Source: Pseudomonadota bacterium (GTDB lineage Bacteria > Pseudomonadota > Alphaproteobacteria > Micavibrionales > UBA2020). From it: a stretch of 64,000 nucleotides of DNA. Made by a program: the position numbers and the translations under genes. Within the stretch, counting starts at the first letter, position 1; the number at the start of each line of letters is the position of its first letter. Positions 50,892-60,031 of the stretch are shown here, piece by piece. The notes beneath the pieces were generated by a model. That model saw nothing but the letters and a program-made list of their open reading frames with translations, was not told the DNA's origin and did not search any database. Where the stretch lies: contig JAEXMB010000081.1 of NCBI GenBank assembly GCA_023444705.1, positions 37 to 64,036 of the forward strand. Reading direction: 5' to 3'.

Positions 50892-52238
50892 TCATCGCTC
50901 GCTGAAGGCTGTCGCCATCGCCGATTGCAGAGGTTTGAGCAGATAGGTCATGATGGTTTTCTCGCCGGTGACGATATCGGCCATCACTGTCATGCCGGGC
51001 AGGATGCGGTTGGCGGTCGTGCCGACATAAGGTTTTTCAAGCGCGACGGTGCCTTCGTAAAAGCGCTCCCCTTTCTCGCCCGCAAAGGTGCTGGGGGAAA
51101 GCGCGGTCAGCCTGCCGCGCACGGCGCCATAGCGCGCAAAGTCAAAACTGCTGACCTTGACCTGCACATTCTGGCCGATTTTCAGATGGCCGATATCGGC
51201 GGGGCGGATGCGCAGGTTGACCACCAGCGGCCCGTCATTGGGCACAATTTCCATCACCGCCTGTGCCGGCTGGATGACGCCGCCGCGCAATTGCAGGTTC
51301 AGCCCCTGCACCATGCCGTCAATAGGGGCCGTGACCAGAAGGTTTTCAAGGCGGTTTTGCAATTTGGCGATCAGTTCGCGGTTTTCGCCTGATTGCGCCA
51401 GCACGCCGTCAAGTTCGCGGTGAGCGTCATCGGCGCGGCCGGCACTCATCGCCTGCTTGCGGGTGGTCAGCTCTGCCAGCATGGCCTGCGTGCCTGCAAC
51501 GTCGCCACGCAGGCGGTCGCGCGCGGCGACGGCATCGTTATAGCGTTGTTCGGTTTCCATCAGGCGCACGTCCGACAACACGCCCTGCCGGTTGAGCGCG
51601 CGGCGCTTGTCCATCAGCGATGTCATCAACGCGGCATTGCGCTCGGCACTGGCGCTGGCGCGGTGCAGGGCGGATAGTTCGGCCTGTTTCTGGCGGATCT
51701 GCTCGTCGATCACGGCCATGTCTTGCGCTGCCGATGTCTGCTGGCTTTTGAGGAAAGCGGCCTGATCGGCGATCAGTGCGTCTGCCTCCGCGCCATCTGC
51801 GGCAAAGACGGGCGCGCGGCCTTCGATCAGGGCGCGCAGGCGTTCTTCCTGCAGGTCAAGCGTGGTCTGGCGTGCCTGTGCGCGGGCAAGATCCTGGCGG
51901 ATATCGGCATCGTCCAGACGCAGAAGCGGATCGCCCCTTTTAACCATCTGGCCATCGCGCACCATGACGCTGGCCACGGTGCCGCCGTCGCGGTGCTGCA
52001 CCATGCGGCTTTGCGTGGCGGGCACGGCCTCGCCCGGCGCGCGCGCCACTTCGCCGACGTGGGCAAAGCAGGCCCAGACGATAAAGGCCAGCAACATCGT
52101 ACACAGCGTTGCGATGGTGGCACGCAAGATGCCCGGCGTTTCGGCTTCGGCCAGACGGATGGATTGCGCAAGATAGCGGGTTTGATGGGTGATGCGGTGT
52201 TTTTGCGTGCGGTGCAGGTCAAGGGTTGTGCTGGTCAT
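50892..52238 (-). CDS. HlyD-family type I secretion membrane fusion protein
   Basis: An N-terminal TM helix and a long coiled coil are followed by the C-terminal barrel, ending ...MTYLLKPL. This is a typical T1SS MFP. A 1-nt overlap links it to the upstream ABC gene. Confidence 0.93.
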   Translation of the reverse strand: MTSTTLDLHRTQKHRITHQTRYLAQSIRLAEAETPGILRATIATLCTMLLAFIVWACFAHVGEVARAPGEAVPATQSRMVQHRDGGTVASVMVRDGQMVKRGDPLLRLDDADIRQDLARAQARQTTLDLQEERLRALIEGRAPVFAADGAEADALIADQAAFLKSQQTSAAQDMAVIDEQIRQKQAELSALHRASASAERNAALMTSLMDKRRALNRQGVLSDVRLMETEQRYNDAVAARDRLRGDVAGTQAMLAELTTRKQAMSAGRADDAHRELDGVLAQSGENRELIAKLQNRLENLLVTAPIDGMVQGLNLQLRGGVIQPAQAVMEIVPNDGPLVVNLRIRPADIGHLKIGQNVQVKVSSFDFARYGAVRGRLTALSPSTFAGEKGERFYEGTVALEKPYVGTTANRILPGMTVMADIVTGEKTIMTYLLKPLQSAMATAFSER

Positions 52239-54505
52239 CAGGCGCTCTCCCGTTTAGGCGTGAAATAGGTGACTTCCGGCTCTTGCTTGTCGCTGTGCGG
52301 CGTGACGTTGCGCGCCAGGTAGTTGATCTTGCCGGCACGGATATCGACTACGCTGTCGGCCAGCGCCAGAATATCCTGCTGCTGGCTGACGATGACGATG
52401 GTGCGCTGGCCGCGCACGCGGTTGATAAAGCGTCTGAGCGTTTCACCCGCCTTGCCGGTGGTGACGCTGGCGGGCAGCTCGTCAATCAGCAAAACGGCCC
52501 CGCCGTGCAGATAGCCGCGCGCCAGCGACAGGCGTGCGGCAAGACTGTGGGGCAGTTTCTGCGGGTCAAGCTTTGCGTAAACGCCGCCGTCCATCGCCTT
52601 GACCTCGTCCATCGCATCGGCAAGGGTAAGGGCGTGGATGACCTCGGCCTCGCTGGCAAGGGGGCGTGCATAGCGCAGGTTTTCGATGATGCTGGCGCTG
52701 AAAAACTCTGCCTGCTGTCCGACATAGCCGATGTGGCGGCGCAGGTGCAGGGGGTCGAGCTGGCGCACGTCAAAACCGTCGATGCGCACCGCCCCGCCCT
52801 GCGTGCGGTACATGCCTTTGATGAGCTTGAGGATAGTGCTTTTGCCGCTGCCGTTGCGCCCCGTGATGCCGACGATCTCGCCGGTGCGGATATGAATGTC
52901 GGCATGACGCAGCACGGGCTGCGTGTCGGCATGGTATTGCATCGTCACGTTGGCAAAGATGATGTCGCCACGGATGTCGAGCAGGCGTGCCGCGCTCATC
53001 GCGCTTTCTTCTTCGGTCTCGATGTCGGTCAGGTCGTTGATCTGCGCCACGCTGTTGCGCAGCTGTTCGATACGCGTGACCATCGCGCATAGACTGTAAA
53101 ACGGCATCAGGACGCGCCAGACGAGCATCATGCTGGCGATCAGCGCGCCTGTGCCGATGGCGCCTTCCCATACCATATGTACGCCGTAACCTACCGTGGC
53201 AACCGCTGCCATCAGGGTAAGTGCATGGGCAAGGGTCTCCGCCACCGTGCTGAGCCAGGTCAGGTTCATGTTCATCATGATCTCGCGTCCCGCAAGATCG
53301 GCGTATTTGGCCTGCCAGACGGGGGAAAGGCCGTTGGCGTGGATGCCGGCCAGCTTGTCAAACGTTTCCAGCGTGAATTGCTGGCGTGCCGAGCTGGCCT
53401 TGGCGGCAAGACGGATCACAACCTTGGTCCGTTTATAGATGACGGCGAACAACACGCCAAAACAGCCAAGCATCATGACCGGCACAAAGGCCAGCGGTCC
53501 CGCGATCAGACCGATCAGTCCGACGGCCAGCACGACGTAGGGGATTTCAAGAAAGGACAGAAAGATTGCGCCACTGAACAAATCGCGGATCGATTCAAAC
53601 GTCTTGATGCGCGCGATCTGCGCTGCGACAGAAATTTTTTCGCCCGTATGCGGCGGCAGGCCCAGCAAATGGGCGAAAATCTGCGTGCCGACCAGCGTGT
53701 CAAGGCGTGCGGACAGCCATGATAACGCGCGTGAGCGCACGCCGCGCAACGCATACTCGGCACAAAGCGCGATGGCGACGCCGATGGTGATGGCAGGCAG
53801 GCTGGCCAGATGCGCGGGCGACACCACGCGGTCATAAACCGCCATCATGTAAAGCGGTGGCGCAAGGGCTGCGATATTCAGCACAAGGCCGATCAGCAAA
53901 ATATGACGCAGCGTCGGTGAAAAGCGCGACAGCAATGCGCGAAACCAGCTTTGGCCCGTACCCTGGCGGATAAAGCGTGACAAACGCTGGCGCTGGCGGT
54001 CATAGGGTTGGAAAAACCAGATGCGCGCGGGCAGGCGAAAGCGTCCGTCGGTGGCATCATGTTCGTTGATCTCGCCGCTGGCGGGATCGTAGATGACGAC
54101 CCGCGCGTCATGGCGGGCGATCAGCGTATAGGGCAGTGCGCCGGGATCGGCAGGCACGACAAGGCAAGGAGCAAGGCGGCCGTCGATCTCGCTGACGGGC
54201 AGATCAAGCGGACGTGAAAAATGACCGAGGTTTGCCATTGCGTTGAGAACGGCGGTTTCGTCAAGGTGACGGGCGGTGGGCGGCAGGGCCTCGAGCGTGT
54301 CGGTCACGCGGTTGTCGGTATTGAGTGTCAGCGCCAGCGCGCAAAAGCAGTTTTTCCACGCCTGCGCCATCGCTTCGGGTGCGTCTTCGGCCTGTGCGCT
54401 GTGATGCCACAGGTGGGTGTCGAGCAGGGTTGACAGGCGCGCGATGGTTTGCGCAAAGACGTTCATATCCTTATCGCTGTAAAGCTGTGGTGACGTGTGC
54501 GTCAT
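52238..54505 (-). CDS. T1SS ABC transporter with N-terminal C39-like domain; degenerate signature and H-loop
   Basis: The N-terminal ~170 aa resemble a C39/C39-like domain (NCFCALAL ... ARHDARVVIYDPASG). A 6-TM region follows, then Walker A GRNGSGKST and Walker B LLIDE. The signature position reads LPHSL instead of LSGGQ (52541-52555), and the H-loop reads VSQQQ. The start is taken at MTHTSPQ (ATGA overlap with the upstream gene). Confidence 0.9.
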   Translation of the reverse strand: MTHTSPQLYSDKDMNVFAQTIARLSTLLDTHLWHHSAQAEDAPEAMAQAWKNCFCALALTLNTDNRVTDTLEALPPTARHLDETAVLNAMANLGHFSRPLDLPVSEIDGRLAPCLVVPADPGALPYTLIARHDARVVIYDPASGEINEHDATDGRFRLPARIWFFQPYDRQRQRLSRFIRQGTGQSWFRALLSRFSPTLRHILLIGLVLNIAALAPPLYMMAVYDRVVSPAHLASLPAITIGVAIALCAEYALRGVRSRALSWLSARLDTLVGTQIFAHLLGLPPHTGEKISVAAQIARIKTFESIRDLFSGAIFLSFLEIPYVVLAVGLIGLIAGPLAFVPVMMLGCFGVLFAVIYKRTKVVIRLAAKASSARQQFTLETFDKLAGIHANGLSPVWQAKYADLAGREIMMNMNLTWLSTVAETLAHALTLMAAVATVGYGVHMVWEGAIGTGALIASMMLVWRVLMPFYSLCAMVTRIEQLRNSVAQINDLTDIETEEESAMSAARLLDIRGDIIFANVTMQYHADTQPVLRHADIHIRTGEIVGITGRNGSGKSTILKLIKGMYRTQGGAVRIDGFDVRQLDPLHLRRHIGYVGQQAEFFSASIIENLRYARPLASEAEVIHALTLADAMDEVKAMDGGVYAKLDPQKLPHSLAARLSLARGYLHGGAVLLIDELPASVTTGKAGETLRRFINRVRGQRTIVIVSQQQDILALADSVVDIRAGKINYLARNVTPHSDKQEPEVTYFTPKRESA

Positions 54506-56202
54506 AGGGTTTCTCCTGCGTCGGTGATATCGCCGCTCATGGCGCATTCGGTGATGCGCCCGCCCTGCAGGTGCAGGTGCCGCGTGGCCAGGGCCTGCAT
54601 CGCGGGTTCCTCGCTGACAATAATCATGCTGACGCGACCGCGCATGGCGTGCAGGTGATCGACCAGCAGCTTTTGCCCGTGACGGTCAAGCGACATATCG
54701 GCACCGTCCAGCAGCAAGACGCCCGGCGTGGCTGCAATGACGCGCGCCATCGCGATGCGCTGCTTGAGGCCCGGGGGGATCGTGTCGCTGATGTTTCCCT
54801 GCAGAAAAGTGTCAAAGCCAAGCGGCAGGCGCGCGATGTCCTTGTCGATGCCAAGCTGCGTGGCCGCGCGGCGGGCGTTGAGCGCATCGATGTCGCCAAA
54901 GCGGGTGATGTTATGGCGGATGGTGCCGCGAAAGATCACCGGTTCGGCATTGACATAGCCGATATGGCGCGCCAGTTGGGCCGGCGTGTAGCGGCGCAGC
55001 GGCTGGCCGTCGATGCGGATGTCGCCGCGCGTCGGGCTCAGTACGCCGGCCAGCAGGCGCAGCAACGTCGTCTTGCCGCTGCCGGTAGGGCCGCTGAGCC
55101 AGACGATGTCACCCGGTGAAATGACAAGCTGGTCGATGGTGAATAACGGCTTGTCAGCTCCTGCAGGTGCATAGGCCAGATTGGCAAGCGCAAGGTTGCC
55201 CCCGGGTTGTGCTGTGGCGCTTTCGCTCACGGCATGGGTGGATAGCCAGCGGCTGTCATGTCGCGCGGGTTCTTCGAGCAGGGTGTTGATTTTCTGGCGC
55301 GCAAGGCTTGCGTCCTGCTGCTTGATCAACAGCGTCAGCCCGCGTTGCACCATCTGCATCATGCGTCCTGACAGCAACAGCGTCGCGACAAGCGCGCCCG
55401 AGGTGATTTCATGACGCAGGGCCAGAAAGGCGCCTAGCATGATGGTGGCGACGACGATAACGTTGGATAATGTGGCGCAGGCGTTAAAGGCTTTGGCCGT
55501 GGCCTCCGCCGTGGTGAAGTTACGCCGTGCGCTGTGTTCTTCGAGCTGTTCGTACTTGCGCTGGAAGATTTTTTCAAGCGTCAGCGCCTTGAGCGTGTGG
55601 ATGGCGCCAAGGGTTTCAATCAGAAAATTATAACGCTTGTCATCCGCTGCATCGCGCTGCGCCAGCAGGCGGCGCAGGGTCTGCCCTTGGGCCAGTGACA
55701 GCAGTGCCATCGCCATCAGTCCCGTCGCGGGTACAATGGCCAGCGGCCCTGCGATATAGATCACAAAAGCCAAAAAGACGGGAATGAAGGCAAGGTCGAT
55801 CAGCGTCACCGGCAGATAGCCGTTGTTGAAATCGCGCAACTTGCCGATGGCCGACATCTGGTGCAGGTATTCGCCCGCGCCGCGCTTGAGCATGTCGGGC
55901 AGGTCTGCCGCCAGCACATGGTCAAGTGCATGGCAGGACATGCGGTATTCGTAAACCGCACCGTACCAGCCCAGCAGCCAGGCGCGCATCAGGCGCAAGG
56001 CCGCCTCGAGCGCGACGGCCACCGCCACCCCCGCGATCAGCAGGGGCAATGTGCCTGATCCCGGATTGGGCAGGATACGGTCATAGATTTGCAAGGTCAT
56101 CACGGGCAGGGCCAGCGCCAGAATATTGATGGCGATACTGGCCGTGACCAGTTGCAACAGCGAAATGTCGGCACGCAGCAGGGGGGCGTGTGCTTTGCTC
56201 AT
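54502..56202 (-). CDS. Second T1SS-type ABC transporter (no N-terminal accessory domain); catalytic motifs degenerate
   Basis: The TMD carries IYDRILP. Walker A is GPTGSGKTT. The Q-loop position reads YVNAEP and the signature position IPPGL (54766-54780). Walker B is LLLDGA, so the catalytic Glu is replaced by Gly (54703-54705). The H-loop reads VSEEP. Confidence 0.9.
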   Translation of the reverse strand: MSKAHAPLLRADISLLQLVTASIAINILALALPVMTLQIYDRILPNPGSGTLPLLIAGVAVAVALEAALRLMRAWLLGWYGAVYEYRMSCHALDHVLAADLPDMLKRGAGEYLHQMSAIGKLRDFNNGYLPVTLIDLAFIPVFLAFVIYIAGPLAIVPATGLMAMALLSLAQGQTLRRLLAQRDAADDKRYNFLIETLGAIHTLKALTLEKIFQRKYEQLEEHSARRNFTTAEATAKAFNACATLSNVIVVATIMLGAFLALRHEITSGALVATLLLSGRMMQMVQRGLTLLIKQQDASLARQKINTLLEEPARHDSRWLSTHAVSESATAQPGGNLALANLAYAPAGADKPLFTIDQLVISPGDIVWLSGPTGSGKTTLLRLLAGVLSPTRGDIRIDGQPLRRYTPAQLARHIGYVNAEPVIFRGTIRHNITRFGDIDALNARRAATQLGIDKDIARLPLGFDTFLQGNISDTIPPGLKQRIAMARVIAATPGVLLLDGADMSLDRHGQKLLVDHLHAMRGRVSMIIVSEEPAMQALATRHLHLQGGRITECAMSGDITDAGETL

Positions 56203-58340
56203 CCAAACAATCCTCCCAGCAGGCCACCGGATTTGCCGCCGCCAAGACCGCCAAGGCCGCCGAGCAGGCCGCCCCCGTCACCGCCATGACTGCCGCCGCC
56301 AAGGTCGAGCAGGCCGATACCCTCGACAATCGAGCCCACGGGCGCCAGTACGCCGCCGTCACCGCCGCTGCCACCGCCAAGCACGCTGTCGATCAGTGTA
56401 TCGCCAAGGTCTGATACGGGGGTTGCAGGCCAGGCACCGCCATCGCCGCCAAGGCCGCCTGCCAGCCCGCCAGTCAGTCCATCCAGCAGGCCGTCGGTCA
56501 CTCTACCCAGCGTGTCGCCAAGCGGGCTGTCGCCGCCAACGCTGACAAGGTCGGATAACGTGCCTGCCAGCGCACCGGGATTGCCAAGCGCGTCAAGGGC
56601 TGCCGTCACGTCGATATCAAGGTCGCCGGTAATGGCTTCGACGATATCAAGCGGCACATGGATATCGTCGATGATGCCAAGGCTGACCGTCAGGTCGGTA
56701 TCGCAGCCTTCGGCGGGCGGGGGGAGAATACCGCCGCTCAGGCCATCCAGCAGATCGCCGGCGACAGGTATATCACCAAGACCCGCCGTAACAGTGTCGA
56801 CCACGCCATCAAGGCCGCCGCCGGCCAGATCACCGATCACGTCACTCACGATGTCGGGCAGGGCGGTGACGACCTCGTGAATTTCACCTGCGGGATCCTG
56901 CAAAATAGCCTCGACCGTGGTGGGGATGGTGACGTCGATGTCGGGCAAGGCTCCGCCCAGTAACTCGCCACCCAGCGATACGGTCGTATCGGCTCCTTGC
57001 AGGATGCCGTCTATGCCGGCATTGACGTCGATATCGCCCACGATTTGTTCCACCACATCAAGGCCAACATGCAGCGTGTCGTTCAGCACAGGCACATCGG
57101 CGATGCCAAGGTCCACCAGAAGGTCGGTATCGCCGCTGGCGGGCGGGGACAGCAGGCCGTCGGTCAGTCCGGATGTCAGCGTTTCAATGGTATCGGGCAG
57201 GCCCATCACGACATCTGTCAGGCTGCCGGCGGGATCGTGCAGAAGGCTTTCTACCGTGACGGGCAGCGACAGGGTGATGTCAGGCAGGGCAGTGCCCAGC
57301 AGCTCCCCGCCCAGCGATACGGTCGTATCCGTTCCCTGCAGGATACCGTCGATGCCGACATTCACGTCGATATCACCCACGATCTGCTCGACCAGATCCA
57401 ATCCCACATGCAGCGTATCGTTGAGCAACGGCAGGTCGGCGATGCCAAGATCGACGATGATGTCAGTGTCCGATCCGGTGGGCGGGGGTTCAAGAAGAGG
57501 GGTGAGGATATTGGTGACCGTCGTCGTGATGGTGGTAATGATGTCGGGCAGGATGGTGGTGATGTTTTCGGTGATGTTCTCGACGGTTTGGGTAATGTTG
57601 GTGACGATGTTCGTCACCTCGGTCAGCTCGATAACCGGACCGATGGTGATCGGGCCGATGATGTCGATATCGACCAGCGTCGTGCCGCCGCAGCAATGAT
57701 CGCCACCGCCGTTGCTGCCGTTTGCGCCATCCGTTCCGTTGGTGCCATTCGTGCCGTTGGTGCCGTTTTGCCCTGCAGGGCCTGCGGGGCCGGGCGTGCC
57801 GTTGGTGCCGTTGCTGCCCGATGCCGCATCAATCGTTGCGGGTGCCGGCAGCACGTCCGAGCTGATGAAGCCGCCGCCGGCGTTTTGTGCGGTCGTGGCG
57901 GGCATGAATTGCGCGGCTGCCGCGCTGTGGCTGTGTACGCTGCCACCGCTGCTGGCTTCGGTGACCGTCATGCCTGCGGGGGTGCTGTGACCTGCCGCAA
58001 CACTGCCCGCAACGCCGCTATATCCCGCCGCGATGCCTGCGGCAAGACTGCCAAGCGTCATGTCCTGGCTATAGGCGCTGTCGCCTGCGCTGGCATCGGC
58101 GAGCAGGTCGTTTTGCTGCGCCTGCAGGATTGCGTGATTGAGGTTGCCCGATCCGGCAATGCCTTCGCTGTTGTCGCCGATTTCCGTGGCGGTGTAGTAA
58201 TCGGCATCAAGTTTTTGTGCCACTGTGCTGCTGACGAAGGCATCGGGCAGGGGGGCTGTGCGTGTATCGCCGCCCACGGCAGGCTGCACGAGGTTGGTGT
58301 TTGGCGTGGCGGTGCCACCGGTGATGTCCAGCAAGGCCAT
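56199..58340 (-). CDS. Putative T1SS cargo: 713-aa highly acidic Gly/Thr/Asp/Leu-rich repeat protein with a collagen-like segment
   Basis: The start is taken at MALLDITGG (ATG 58340-58338), with the RBS AAGGGGGA 8 nt upstream. The stop overlaps the ABC start (ATGA). By my count there are only 2 Lys and 2 Arg. Segments are listed as separate repeat features. Confidence 0.8.
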   Translation of the reverse strand: MALLDITGGTATPNTNLVQPAVGGDTRTAPLPDAFVSSTVAQKLDADYYTATEIGDNSEGIAGSGNLNHAILQAQQNDLLADASAGDSAYSQDMTLGSLAAGIAAGYSGVAGSVAAGHSTPAGMTVTEASSGGSVHSHSAAAAQFMPATTAQNAGGGFISSDVLPAPATIDAASGSNGTNGTPGPAGPAGQNGTNGTNGTNGTDGANGSNGGGDHCCGGTTLVDIDIIGPITIGPVIELTEVTNIVTNITQTVENITENITTILPDIITTITTTVTNILTPLLEPPPTGSDTDIIVDLGIADLPLLNDTLHVGLDLVEQIVGDIDVNVGIDGILQGTDTTVSLGGELLGTALPDITLSLPVTVESLLHDPAGSLTDVVMGLPDTIETLTSGLTDGLLSPPASGDTDLLVDLGIADVPVLNDTLHVGLDVVEQIVGDIDVNAGIDGILQGADTTVSLGGELLGGALPDIDVTIPTTVEAILQDPAGEIHEVVTALPDIVSDVIGDLAGGGLDGVVDTVTAGLGDIPVAGDLLDGLSGGILPPPAEGCDTDLTVSLGIIDDIHVPLDIVEAITGDLDIDVTAALDALGNPGALAGTLSDLVSVGGDSPLGDTLGRVTDGLLDGLTGGLAGGLGGDGGAWPATPVSDLGDTLIDSVLGGGSGGDGGVLAPVGSIVEGIGLLDLGGGSHGGDGGGLLGGLGGLGGGKSGGLLGGLFG
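56574..57470 (-). repeat. Two and a half tandem coding repeats (~113-143 aa units) inside the cargo gene
   Basis: Unit 1 (57132-57470) reads DTDIIVDLGIADLPLLNDTLHVGLDLVEQIVGDIDVNVGIDGILQGTDTTVSLGGELLG... Unit 2 (56703-57131) reads DTDLLVDLGIADVPVLNDTLHVGLDVVEQIVGDIDVNAGIDGILQGADTTVSLGGELLG... The partial unit 3 (56574-56702) reads DTDLTVSLGIIDDIHVPLDIVEAITGDLDIDV. Each unit is preceded by PPP/PPA-x-G. Confidence 0.85.
57702..57818 (-). repeat. Collagen-like Gly-X-Y run (about 12-13 triplets) inside the cargo gene
   Basis: GSN GTN GTP GPA GPA GQN GTN GTN GTN GTD GAN GSN GGG. It also creates several N-G-T/S sequons. Confidence 0.85.
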
Positions 58341-58557
58341 GATGCGATCCCCCTTTGTTTTTGCGGTGCGCAAAGTCCGGCGTGGTGCCGTTGTCTCTTT
58401 GCGTCCACTCTTTCAGGATGCAACTTTTGGTTTAATTAGGGATGAAATATGCCAAAACCTTTATGGAACGTGGTTCACAAAAATCTGCATATTTAAAGTG
58501 ATTTCAGCCAAATCCACAAAAAAACGTATACACTTTAGGGTTGTATTTTGATATGGT

Positions 58558-58583
58558 GGCGCATTCCGGCATATGCGCCGGAA
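58558..58583. promoter_or_regulatory. Two interleaved inverted repeats in the cargo-operon / tolC divergent control region
   Basis: The repeats are GGCGCAT(58558-58564)...ATGCGCC(58573-58579) and TTCCGGC(58564-58570)-N6-GCCGGAA(58577-58583). They lie 33-58 nt upstream of the TolC-like ATG. This may be an operator or a leader hairpin; the function is unproven. Confidence 0.3.
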
Positions 58584-58615
58584 GCGTCTGTCCGCTGTAT
58601 ATAGGAGAGAATCGC

Positions 58616-60031
58616 ATGATGTTGCCGTTACTTTTTACCCGCCGCTCTGGCGTTTTTTTTATCGTTGTCGCTGTGCTGCTGCCCGTCGTGGCGGCAGCGC
58701 AGCAATCCTCCCCGCCGCAACCGCGCACCGTCGATTTGGCGCACATCGCGGCGGCGGCATACCAGCATAGTCCGGCCATCCGCGCGGCGCGCCAGCAATT
58801 GCGCGGCGTGCAGGAGCTTTATCCGCAGGCACTGGCGAATTACCAGCCCGACATCAATGCGACCGCGGGCATCACCGACGAAGATCTGGATAACAGCAAC
58901 TTCGCCGGTGCCGATGGTGCCACGACCAAGGATGTCGGCGTGACGTTTGACCAGCCGGTCTGGCGCGGCGGGCGCAGCCGCGCGCAAAAGAACGAGGCCA
59001 AGGCGCGCATCGCCGCACAAAAGGCATCGCTGGCCGCAACCGAACAACGCATGATGGCCGACGCGATGACGGCGGCAGTGGCGGCCGAGGCCGCGACGCG
59101 CACGCTGTCCGTGCAGAATAATACCGAAGGCCTGTATCAACGCCTGCTTGGCGATACCGTCAAACGGCAGGAAGGTGGCGAGGCGACGCAAACCGATCGC
59201 GCGCTGGCGCAAAGCCGCCTGTCGGGCGTCACGGCCGACCGCCTGCAGGCCGCCAATCGCCGCAGCGCCGCTGGCCGCGCGCTGGAGCGCCAGACCGGGC
59301 AAACCCCCGCACAATGGGGGTTGGATGATGCTGTGCCCACGTTGACGCTACAGGGCATGCCCGCAACGCTGGAAGCCGCGCAATCGCTGGCGCGCGCCGC
59401 CAATCCTGACCGTGCCGTGCTGGTGGCGGTGCAGGACGCGGAAAACCACGGCATCGAGCTTGCCCGCGGTGAGTTGTTGCCGGAGCTGAACTTCCGCGCC
59501 AGCTGGCTGCGTGAATGGGACCCGTCGCCCGGCCTGATCGACGATGCCACCAGCCGGCAGGTTGGGTTGCGCCTGAGCATTCCGTTATATGAGGGCGGGG
59601 GCACGCGGTCGCGCGTACGTGCGGCTAAAAACCGCATGGCACAAAGCCGCTATGAGCTTGAAGATTTCGACCTCAAGCTCGCGCAGGACGTCGGCGATGC
59701 GTGGACGCGTCATGAAACCGCGCAGGAACGCGCGCGTGTACTGGCCGAGCAAAGCCGCAGTGCGCGCGTTGCACGCGACAATATCGAGCGCGAAATCCTG
59801 GGGGGAGAAAAAACCATGACCGATCTGCTGCAGGCCGACCAGACATGGCTGGATGCGCAGGTCGATGCCATTGCAGCGCAAGAAGCGGCGCAGAACAGCA
59901 TGATCGAGGTATTGCGCCTGACCGGCATGCTCACGCCGCAAAACCTTGGCTTTGGCGCTGCGGCTTACGATCCTGATGCTTATCTGCTGGCGGTGCGTCA
60001 CCGCGTTCTCAGCACTGCGGTGCCGGATTAG
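58616..60031 (+). CDS. TolC-family outer-membrane channel
   Basis: The start MMLPLLF follows the RBS AGGAGA. It has a signal peptide (...VVAAAQQ) and two OEP repeats with typical motifs (AYQHSPAIRAARQQL..., YPQ..., QPVW.GGR, IPLYEGG). Length is about 471 aa. Confidence 0.88.
   Translation: MMLPLLFTRRSGVFFIVVAVLLPVVAAAQQSSPPQPRTVDLAHIAAAAYQHSPAIRAARQQLRGVQELYPQALANYQPDINATAGITDEDLDNSNFAGADGATTKDVGVTFDQPVWRGGRSRAQKNEAKARIAAQKASLAATEQRMMADAMTAAVAAEAATRTLSVQNNTEGLYQRLLGDTVKRQEGGEATQTDRALAQSRLSGVTADRLQAANRRSAAGRALERQTGQTPAQWGLDDAVPTLTLQGMPATLEAAQSLARAANPDRAVLVAVQDAENHGIELARGELLPELNFRASWLREWDPSPGLIDDATSRQVGLRLSIPLYEGGGTRSRVRAAKNRMAQSRYELEDFDLKLAQDVGDAWTRHETAQERARVLAEQSRSARVARDNIEREILGGEKTMTDLLQADQTWLDAQVDAIAAQEAAQNSMIEVLRLTGMLTPQNLGFGAAAYDPDAYLLAVRHRVLSTAVPD

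Follow-up and report, generated by a model that had tools for sequence, protein, structure and literature searches.

Complementary loss of ATPase motifs in a tandem ABC transporter pair points to a probable heterodimeric type I secretion system with a single hydrolytic site

In a stretch of 64,000 nucleotides from a Pseudomonadota bacterium (Alphaproteobacteria, Micavibrionales, UBA2020; assembly GCA_023444705.1, contig JAEXMB010000081.1, positions 37 to 64,036), analysed as a whole and termed here the window, two different ATP-binding cassette (ABC) half-transporters, ABC-1 and ABC-2, are encoded in tandem within a type I secretion system (T1SS) cassette. Comparison of the two proteins with their relatives suggests that they probably constitute an obligate heterodimeric exporter with a single hydrolytic site, whose signature motif is devoid of the usual Ser. 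The usual view of T1SS ABC transporters is that of homodimers whose two ATP sites are canonical and equivalent, and both the signature Ser and the H-loop His are essential in textbook models. The cassette would thus represent a natural experiment, in which a widespread T1SS has kept one ATP site and discarded the other, down to the P-loop in some species, and in which neither the signature Ser nor the H-loop His is left at the surviving site.

A sequence-only reading of the window had assigned non-canonical ATPase motifs to both proteins. The register of these motifs was checked with phmmer against HlyB (7sgr and 8dck), with phmmer against a PrtD-type exporter (5l22) and ABCB1, and in a MAFFT alignment that included the LssB protein encoded on another contig of the same genome, which is canonical at every motif (GAVGSGKTT, VVQQ, LSGGQ, LLLDEPTASID and VTH). 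All three alignments reproduce the motifs called in ABC-1 (GRNGSGKST, LLIDE, LPHSL, ASVT and VSQQQ) and in ABC-2 (GPTGSGKTT, NAEP, IPPGL, LLLDGA with Glu replaced by Gly, and VSEEP), and the nucleotide coordinates of every motif agree upon re-translation (Table 1). A proper alignment could have restored a canonical LSGGQ, catalytic Glu and His; instead, the non-canonical register was upheld. In ABC-1, one extra residue follows the catalytic Glu of Walker B, and no Asp remains in the D-loop. Identical variants (D-G, SEEP and NAEP in ABC-2; VSQQQ and LPHSL in ABC-1) are found in relatives at 70-92% identity, and those at 35-50% identity have the forms of these motifs that hold across the family, which rules out chance or sequencing error as their origin.

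The distribution of motif residues was counted at species level over 74 intact ABC-1/ABC-2 pairs. Site I comprises the elements contributed in cis by ABC-1 together with the signature and D-loop contributed in trans by ABC-2, and site II is the reverse; in ABC dimer structures the D-loop of the partner also contributes to the site of the opposite nucleotide-binding domain (NBD). At site I, ABC-1 presents the A-loop Tyr in 71, the Walker A Lys in all 74 and the catalytic Glu in 69 of the pairs, while its Q-loop residue is Gln (55/74) or Lys (17/74). The H-loop residue of ABC-1 is Tyr in 49 pairs, His in 19 and Gln in one, the latter being common to the near relatives of the window; all three are hydrogen-bond donors, which the Asp or Glu found at the H-loop of ABC-2 is not. 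The ABC-2 signature follows the consensus [IVL]-P-P-G-L, with Pro477 in 66 and Gly478 in 72 of the 74 pairs, and is followed by Q-R-I, each residue of which is found in 73; the D-loop Asp of ABC-2 is invariant (74/74).

The elements of site II are distributed very differently. The Walker A Lys of ABC-2 is found in 61 of the 74 pairs, the G-K-[ST] element is missing from 19, and in about 10 species the P-loop is obliterated (for example TDHTPSLSA, SDNASSLDA or AADDVALAV) in ABC-2 proteins that retain intact open reading frames (ORFs), the transmembrane domain (TMD) and an IPPGL or VPPGL signature. Thus, in species with a destroyed ABC-2 P-loop, site I is the only possible nucleotide site. The Q-loop Gln of ABC-2 is present in three pairs, the Walker B Glu position is mostly occupied by Asn (49/74), Glu (10/74) or Asp (7/74), and the H-loop position by Asp (45/74), Asn (13/74), Glu (10/74) or His (2/74). 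The trans elements of ABC-1 comprise an L-[PTS]-S-S-L signature and a D-loop that never carries Asp and has Leu in 60 of the pairs. The survey of signature variants among homologues that the sequence-only reading had proposed thus separates the two motifs: the second Gly of the IPPGL type is kept in 72 pairs, as given above, and the LPHSL type is poorly kept, with the second Gly in only 11 of the 74. The ABC-2 signature has a mean column conservation of 0.84 and that of ABC-1 a value of 0.56, the NBD background being about 0.6, and the TMDs are conserved to the same degree as the NBDs. Covariation between the motif states of ABC-1 and ABC-2 is visible, follows clades and was not counted as independent evidence. 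Each subunit appears to keep its contributions to site I and to lose its contributions to site II, a pattern predicted for a heterodimer with one working site and the opposite of that predicted for two independent homodimers.

A distinct ABC-1 subclade, encoded at loci L004, L009, L010, L012, L014, L016-L019, L023, L024, L036, L038 and L050, displays the Walker A sequence G-x-N-G-x-G-K-A-T. In these 14 species Ala takes the place of the Mg-coordinating Ser/Thr and Lys that of the Q-loop Gln; the clade of the window has neither change. The double change may reflect a single evolutionary event, but suggests that the one ATP site still live has been remodelled further.

ABC-1 and ABC-2 share 25% identity. 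In a maximum-likelihood tree each protein forms a monophyletic group (100/100) and the internal topologies of the two groups mirror each other; moderate support (94/73, midpoint root) unites the two groups to the exclusion of the LssB of the same genome and of three other exporters. The stem is longer in ABC-2 (1.27) than in ABC-1 (0.72). In the early-branching pairs L081, L082 and L083, ABC-2 keeps the Gln, Glu and His, and the signatures of both proteins are already non-canonical (LPGGI/LPRGI and LPAGF/LPTSF). The signatures thus seem to have changed first, with the catalytic residues of ABC-2 lost later, and these three pairs look like intermediates towards the one-site state.

That the two proteins very likely form an obligate heterodimer, as the sequence-only reading had proposed, gains support from the adjacency of the genes, the 4-nt overlap at the ABC-2/ABC-1 junction in 57 of the 74 intact pairs, the mirrored monophyletic trees and the complementary motif losses. 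In the arrangement we favour, ABC-1 would provide Tyr524, Lys555, Gln597, Asp675-Glu676 and Gln708 to site I, ABC-2 would complete this site with the signature I475-PPGL and the D-loop Asp506, and ATP would be hydrolysed there only. Site II, comprising the ABC-2 Walker A, A419, G500 and E531 together with LPHSL and Thr682 of ABC-1, would not hydrolyse ATP; with the intact P-loop found in the window it would at most bind nucleotide without turnover, acting as a static glue or a sensor, and degenerate sites elsewhere do bind ATP without turnover (PMC7756269). The heterodimer would energise a dedicated T1SS comprising a TolC-like outer-membrane factor (OMF), an HlyD-type membrane-fusion protein (MFP) and a Gly/Asp-rich cargo encoded alongside; three such dimers may assemble with six MFPs, the arrangement seen in HlyB/D (8dck). 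We infer both the physical heterodimer and hydrolysis at site I from the sequence comparisons, and site I is plausibly active in an altered form. Strictly speaking, neither composite site is canonical, as the sequence-only reading had stated, site I being devoid of the signature Ser and the H-loop His and site II being degenerate. The two sites are nevertheless not equally odd, since site I is conserved and site II is decaying, and the accompanying question of how transport is powered is probably answered by a single ATP site.

Several points weigh against this arrangement. The support for a one-site heterodimer is all comparative, mirrored trees and synteny also arise from co-inheritance in one operon and are no proof of pairing, and the D-loop is assigned to the opposite site on the basis of ABC dimer structures in general, not of a model of this pair. 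In addition, the signature Ser of site I is Pro476 in the window and Pro in 44 of the 74 species, and the H-loop His is replaced by Gln708. Zaitseva et al. are said to have found, in 2005, that the H-loop His is essential in HlyB. The Ser is described as the most conserved residue of the signature, and in transition-state structures of MalK the gamma-phosphate is held by the Ser side chain together with the backbone NH of the second Gly. The absence of Ser and His from site I, the role of signature Ser and second Gly as gamma-phosphate ligands, and the subclade in which the ABC-1 Walker A Ser/Thr is changed to Ala and the Q-loop Gln to Lys also speak for an alternative that we consider unlikely, in which neither site of the heterodimer hydrolyses ATP usefully. 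On that view the NBDs would serve as a clamp gated by nucleotide, and transport would draw its energy only from the binding and release of ATP or, for the most part, from the proton-motive force. The asymmetry between the two proteins would then be hard to explain, as the Glu and Lys kept in 69 and 74 of the ABC-1 proteins, respectively, are both freely lost in ABC-2. The near-invariant second Gly of the ABC-2 signature also argues against such a clamp, as does the NBS2 of MRP1, in which transport is much like that of the wild type with Gln or Asn as the H-loop residue (PMC7756269).

It is also improbable that the two proteins form separate homodimers, with ABC-1 as the transporter and ABC-2 as either a non-catalytic accessory, for instance a scaffold in an HlyB-like trimer of dimers, or a separate exporter. 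The T1SS ABC proteins studied so far (HlyB and PrtD) are homodimeric, and the C39-like domain and the catalytic residues are located on ABC-1 alone. However, an ABC-1 homodimer would have to rely, at both sites, on the weakly conserved LPHSL-type signature and on D-loops that lack Asp, while an ABC-2 homodimer would set the conserved IPPGLKQRI and D-loop Asp against dead or absent P-loops. The conservation of these ABC-2 trans elements makes sense only if they serve the ABC-1 site, and translational coupling in 57 of the 74 species further argues against independent transporters. A decaying, non-functional secretion system with drifting motifs is hardly credible and was rejected on conservation: many catalytic motifs are indeed off consensus and the two proteins score only 401 and 337 bits against a TIGR03375 cut-off of 693, but the four ORFs are intact and coupled, identical variants are found at 70-92% identity, family-wide variants are kept down to about 35% identity in 126 species, and the TMDs are as well conserved as the NBDs.

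Within the heterodimer with one hydrolytic site, a more far-reaching possibility, which we regard as tentative, is that a different kind of ABC catalytic site, with a PPGL signature without Ser and Tyr or Gln in place of His, drives the secretion of proteins of more than 700 residues. This proposal extends to the subclade with the Q-loop Lys and without the Walker A Ser/Thr, and the partner NBD would be a pure pseudo-ATPase with a dispensable P-loop. If true, the pair would amount to a naturally minimal ABC motor that runs on one site and stimulates hydrolysis in a new manner.

The TIGR03375 profile, which describes the LssB subfamily, is the best hidden Markov model (HMM) match of both proteins (ABC-1, 400.9 bits; ABC-2, 337.0 bits; cut-off 693.1), and the LssB of the same genome, on contig C100, scores 924 bits. 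By the curated cut-offs, neither protein is a member of the LssB, HlyB or PrtD families. ABC-1 aligns to the LssB model from position 2 and ABC-2 from position 148, without the N-terminal domain; the LssB architecture (C39-like domain, six transmembrane helices and NBD) is thus displayed by ABC-1 only. The AlphaFold2 model of ABC-1 (predicted local distance difference test, pLDDT, 76.8) best matches full-length HlyB (8dck_A, E 1.4e-38, 686 columns) and PCAT1, over about 690-700 columns that include their N-terminal domains, and TM287/288, TmrAB and BmrCD are also among its structural matches. The ABC-2 model (pLDDT 76.5) is a plain half-transporter of six transmembrane helices and an NBD. Both variant signatures are located at the N-terminus of the signature helix in these models, which are single chains and silent on pairing. 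The C39-like domain that the sequence-only reading had placed on ABC-1 is thereby borne out by LssB HMM alignment and fold match, and the lack of an accessory domain in ABC-2 by its start in the LssB model and its plain fold.

The N-terminal 195 residues of ABC-1 have no Pfam match, C39 included, even at E<=10, and the position of the C39 catalytic His is not His in the ABC-1 family (MAFFT alignment). The absence of a Pfam C39 match, the alignment with the LssB N-terminal domain, the HlyB/PCAT1 fold match and the missing catalytic His make C39-like the right label; the domain is not a peptidase. Unlike peptidase-containing ABC transporters (PCATs), ABC-1 lacks Pfam Peptidase_C39 and has a conserved Cys55 without its partner His. 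ABC-1 residues 50-57 (Trp50...Cys55-Ala-Leu), in the first helix of the domain, are kept in at least 90% of 41 homologues. A role of ABC-1 as an active double-glycine peptidase on the N-terminal cargo sequence MALLDITGG was considered and rejected, the catalytic His being absent and the N-termini of the cargo homologues being unrelated and without a GG leader.

Both ABC ORFs were found on the minus strand at the coordinates given by the sequence-only reading, and Pfam identifies ABC_membrane and ABC_tran in each. The longest ORF of ABC-1 comprises 769 residues, and the 755-residue start is an ATG with GGAG 7 nt upstream. The four minus-strand genes (cargo, ABC-2, ABC-1 and MFP) are intact and translationally coupled: the cargo stop and ABC-2 start overlap as ATGA (GGAGG-N9-ATGA), the ABC-2 stop and ABC-1 start likewise (GGAG-N7-ATGA), and the ABC-1 stop and MFP start overlap as TGATG. 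An HlyD-family adaptor and a TolC-like OMF are thus encoded with the ABC proteins, as in a T1SS, and distant loci display like neighbours. Through this T1SS, we infer, the co-encoded candidate cargo would be secreted.

Table 1. Genes of the cassette in the window and ATPase motifs of the two half-transporters
Feature	Position	Strand	Remarks
HlyD-family T1SS membrane-fusion protein (MFP), 448 aa	50892..52238	(-)	TIGR01843 347.9 bits, cut-off 208.65; Pfam HlyD_3
ABC-1 half-transporter, 755 aa	52238..54505	(-)	C39-like N-terminal domain, TMD and NBD
ABC-1 A-loop Y524; Q-loop Q597			Alignment
ABC-1 Walker A GRNGSGKST	52835..52861	(-)	Lys555
ABC-1 signature LPHSL for LSGGQ	52541..52555	(-)	Alignment, re-translation
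ABC-1 Walker B and D-loop LLIDELPASVT	52460..52492	(-)	D675-E676 kept; D-loop ASVT, Thr682
ABC-1 H-loop Gln708 for His	52382..52384	(-)	Alignment, re-translation
ABC-2 half-transporter, 566 aa	54502..56202	(-)	Six transmembrane helices and NBD, no N-terminal appendix
ABC-2 A-loop position P346			Alignment
ABC-2 Walker A GPTGSGKTT, intact here	55066..55092	(-)	Alignment, re-translation
ABC-2 Q-loop Ala419 for Gln	54946..54948	(-)	Alignment, re-translation
ABC-2 signature IPPGL (from I475) for LSGGQ	54766..54780	(-)	Followed by conserved KQRIA-AR
ABC-2 Walker B and D-loop LLLDGADMSLD	54685..54717	(-)	D499-G500; D-loop MSLD, Asp506 kept
ABC-2 H-loop Glu531 for His	54610..54612	(-)	Alignment, re-translation
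Putative cargo, 713 aa from ATG at 58340	56199..58340	(-)	Gly/Asp/Thr-rich repeat protein
TolC-like outer-membrane factor (OMF), divergent	58541..60031	(+)	Pfam OEP 178.9 bits; likely start ATG 58616

The longest ORF of the putative cargo begins at TTG 58373. The protein has no Pfam or NCBIfam match, RTX included, and terminates in GGLLGGLFG. Cargo homologues are located upstream of ABC-2 in distant loci too, and the family (56199-58340 on the minus strand of the window, L001:7572-10004 and L003:7683-10004) shares a KLDADQY...GSGNLNF block near the N-terminus, runs of collagen-like G-x-[ND]-G, an Ile/Thr-rich NxT stretch, acidic GDTDL...PLDPxExxxGDIDLD repeats that are not RTX nonapeptides, and a conserved C-terminus ending in GGLFG. 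No conserved N-terminal double-glycine leader was found among the homologues.

Homologues at 45-50% identity number in the hundreds for each ABC protein, and those of the two repeatedly share contigs. A scan of one genome per species revealed an ABC-2 relative in 126 species, most of which are labelled Micavibrio or uncultured Alphaproteobacteria, a few being Cellvibrionaceae; in the order to which the window belongs the pair is present as a single copy in 38 of 151 genomes and 27 of 54 genera. The recurrent cassette is TolC / cargo / ABC-2 / ABC-1 / HlyD, and among 83 loci the order ABC-2, ABC-1, MFP is observed in almost all of those on uncut contigs, often with a detectable homologous cargo gene and divergent OMF (OEP) gene. 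The cultured carriers include Micavibrio aeruginosavorus HCB189 and Marinagarivorans algicola Z1, so that the questions raised here are open to experiment. Since the cassette is enriched in Micavibrio-like predatory bacteria, the cargo may matter for predation or surface biology.

Beyond the TolC-like OMF gene, the window encodes a sigma-54 activator without a receiver domain (60038-61009 on the minus strand). In distant relatives (L001:15222-16602 and L003:15222-18737) the cassette is followed by a response regulator together with an Hpt protein or a hybrid histidine kinase, where the window has an alpha-glucosidase gene; it seems that one mode of regulating the cassette has been swapped for another between lineages. 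The same genome also encodes a classical T1SS on contig C100 (L084:248-10000), comprising a 1511-aa RTX/VWA/DUF5801 protein, a TolC-like OMF, a canonical LssB, which keeps LSGGQ, D-E and His, and an HlyD protein. This arrangement matches that reported for Micavibrio aeruginosavorus GMV0107-0111, and the Micavibrio genome paper mentions only the classical T1SS.

The pair bears on the use of ATP per secretion step in T1SS. It would allow a direct test of whether one site can power protein secretion, and tests of which contacts of the signature and the H-loop are needed and of the role of a C39-like domain present at one copy per dimer.

The closest parallels among known systems are the heterodimeric type IV-fold exporters TM287/288, TmrAB, BmrCD, LmrCD/PatAB and TAP1/2 (PMC7756269), which are likewise two unlike half-transporters encoded side by side. 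In these heterodimers the degenerate site combines a substituted Glu and His of one subunit with a substituted signature of the partner, and the other site keeps its Glu. ABC-1 and ABC-2 share the adjacency and co-inheritance of such exporters, and site II, with G500 and E531 of ABC-2 facing LPHSL of ABC-1, resembles the degenerate sites of TM287/288, TmrAB, TAP and MRP1. In contrast, the consensus site of the TM287/288 type is fully canonical (LSGGQ and His), while site I keeps the Glu and combines it with a trans signature of the PPGL type without Ser (IPPGL in the window) and an H-loop Tyr, His or Gln (Gln in the window, Tyr in most relatives). The pair further differs from the TM287/288 type in that the P-loop of the partner can vanish entirely, in that one subunit carries a C39-like domain, and in its association with an MFP and a TolC-like OMF in a T1SS, TM287/288-type proteins being drug or peptide exporters.

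Among secretion systems, the LssB/HlyB type (TIGR03375 and TIGR01846; 7sgr and 8dck) displays the three-domain architecture of ABC-1, with an HlyD-type MFP and a TolC-like OMF alongside, but forms homodimers with two canonical sites, whereas here two paralogous subunits are found, one of which lacks the N-terminal domain. The atypical, four-component T1SS of MARTX toxins requires RtxB and RtxE, one MFP and a TolC-like OMF (Boardman & Satchell 2004, summarised in PMC3034196), and thus shares the combination of two different ABC proteins with a single MFP and a TolC-like OMF. It is set apart by its gene order (rtxB-rtxD-rtxE, as opposed to ABC2-ABC1-MFP) and by its substrate, a MARTX toxin rather than a non-RTX Gly/Asp-rich cargo. 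The NHLP-type bacteriocin export systems (TIGR03796, TIGR03797 and TIGR03794) likewise comprise tandem ABC genes with an HlyD-like protein and one peptidase-type N-terminal domain. Assignment of the pair to the NHLP ABC1/ABC2 families (TIGR03796/TIGR03797) was rejected, as ABC-1 scores 181.3/162.8 bits and ABC-2 181.7/151.0 bits against cut-offs of 853.3/709.4; unlike NHLP, the N-terminal domain here has no catalytic His, and in place of a small leader-peptide cargo there is one of more than 700 residues with a conserved C-terminus. The NBS1 of the yeast PDR pump Pdr5, degenerate in several motifs, presents a Walker B Glu to Asn and an H-loop His to Tyr substitution (PMC7756269), which recall the Asn of ABC-2 and the Tyr of ABC-1, each in 49 of the 74 pairs; however, Pdr5 is a full-length eukaryotic transporter of the type V fold, and its Tyr is located in the dead site, while here Tyr occupies the presumed live site. 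A literature search that included the T1SS review PMC8277102 found no T1SS described with complementary NBD degeneracy, and no report of such degeneracy for the two-ABC systems of MARTX or NHLP. The pair would thus represent a variant, of which we found no published description, of the degenerate-site logic of heterodimeric ABC exporters, placed at the service of a T1SS.

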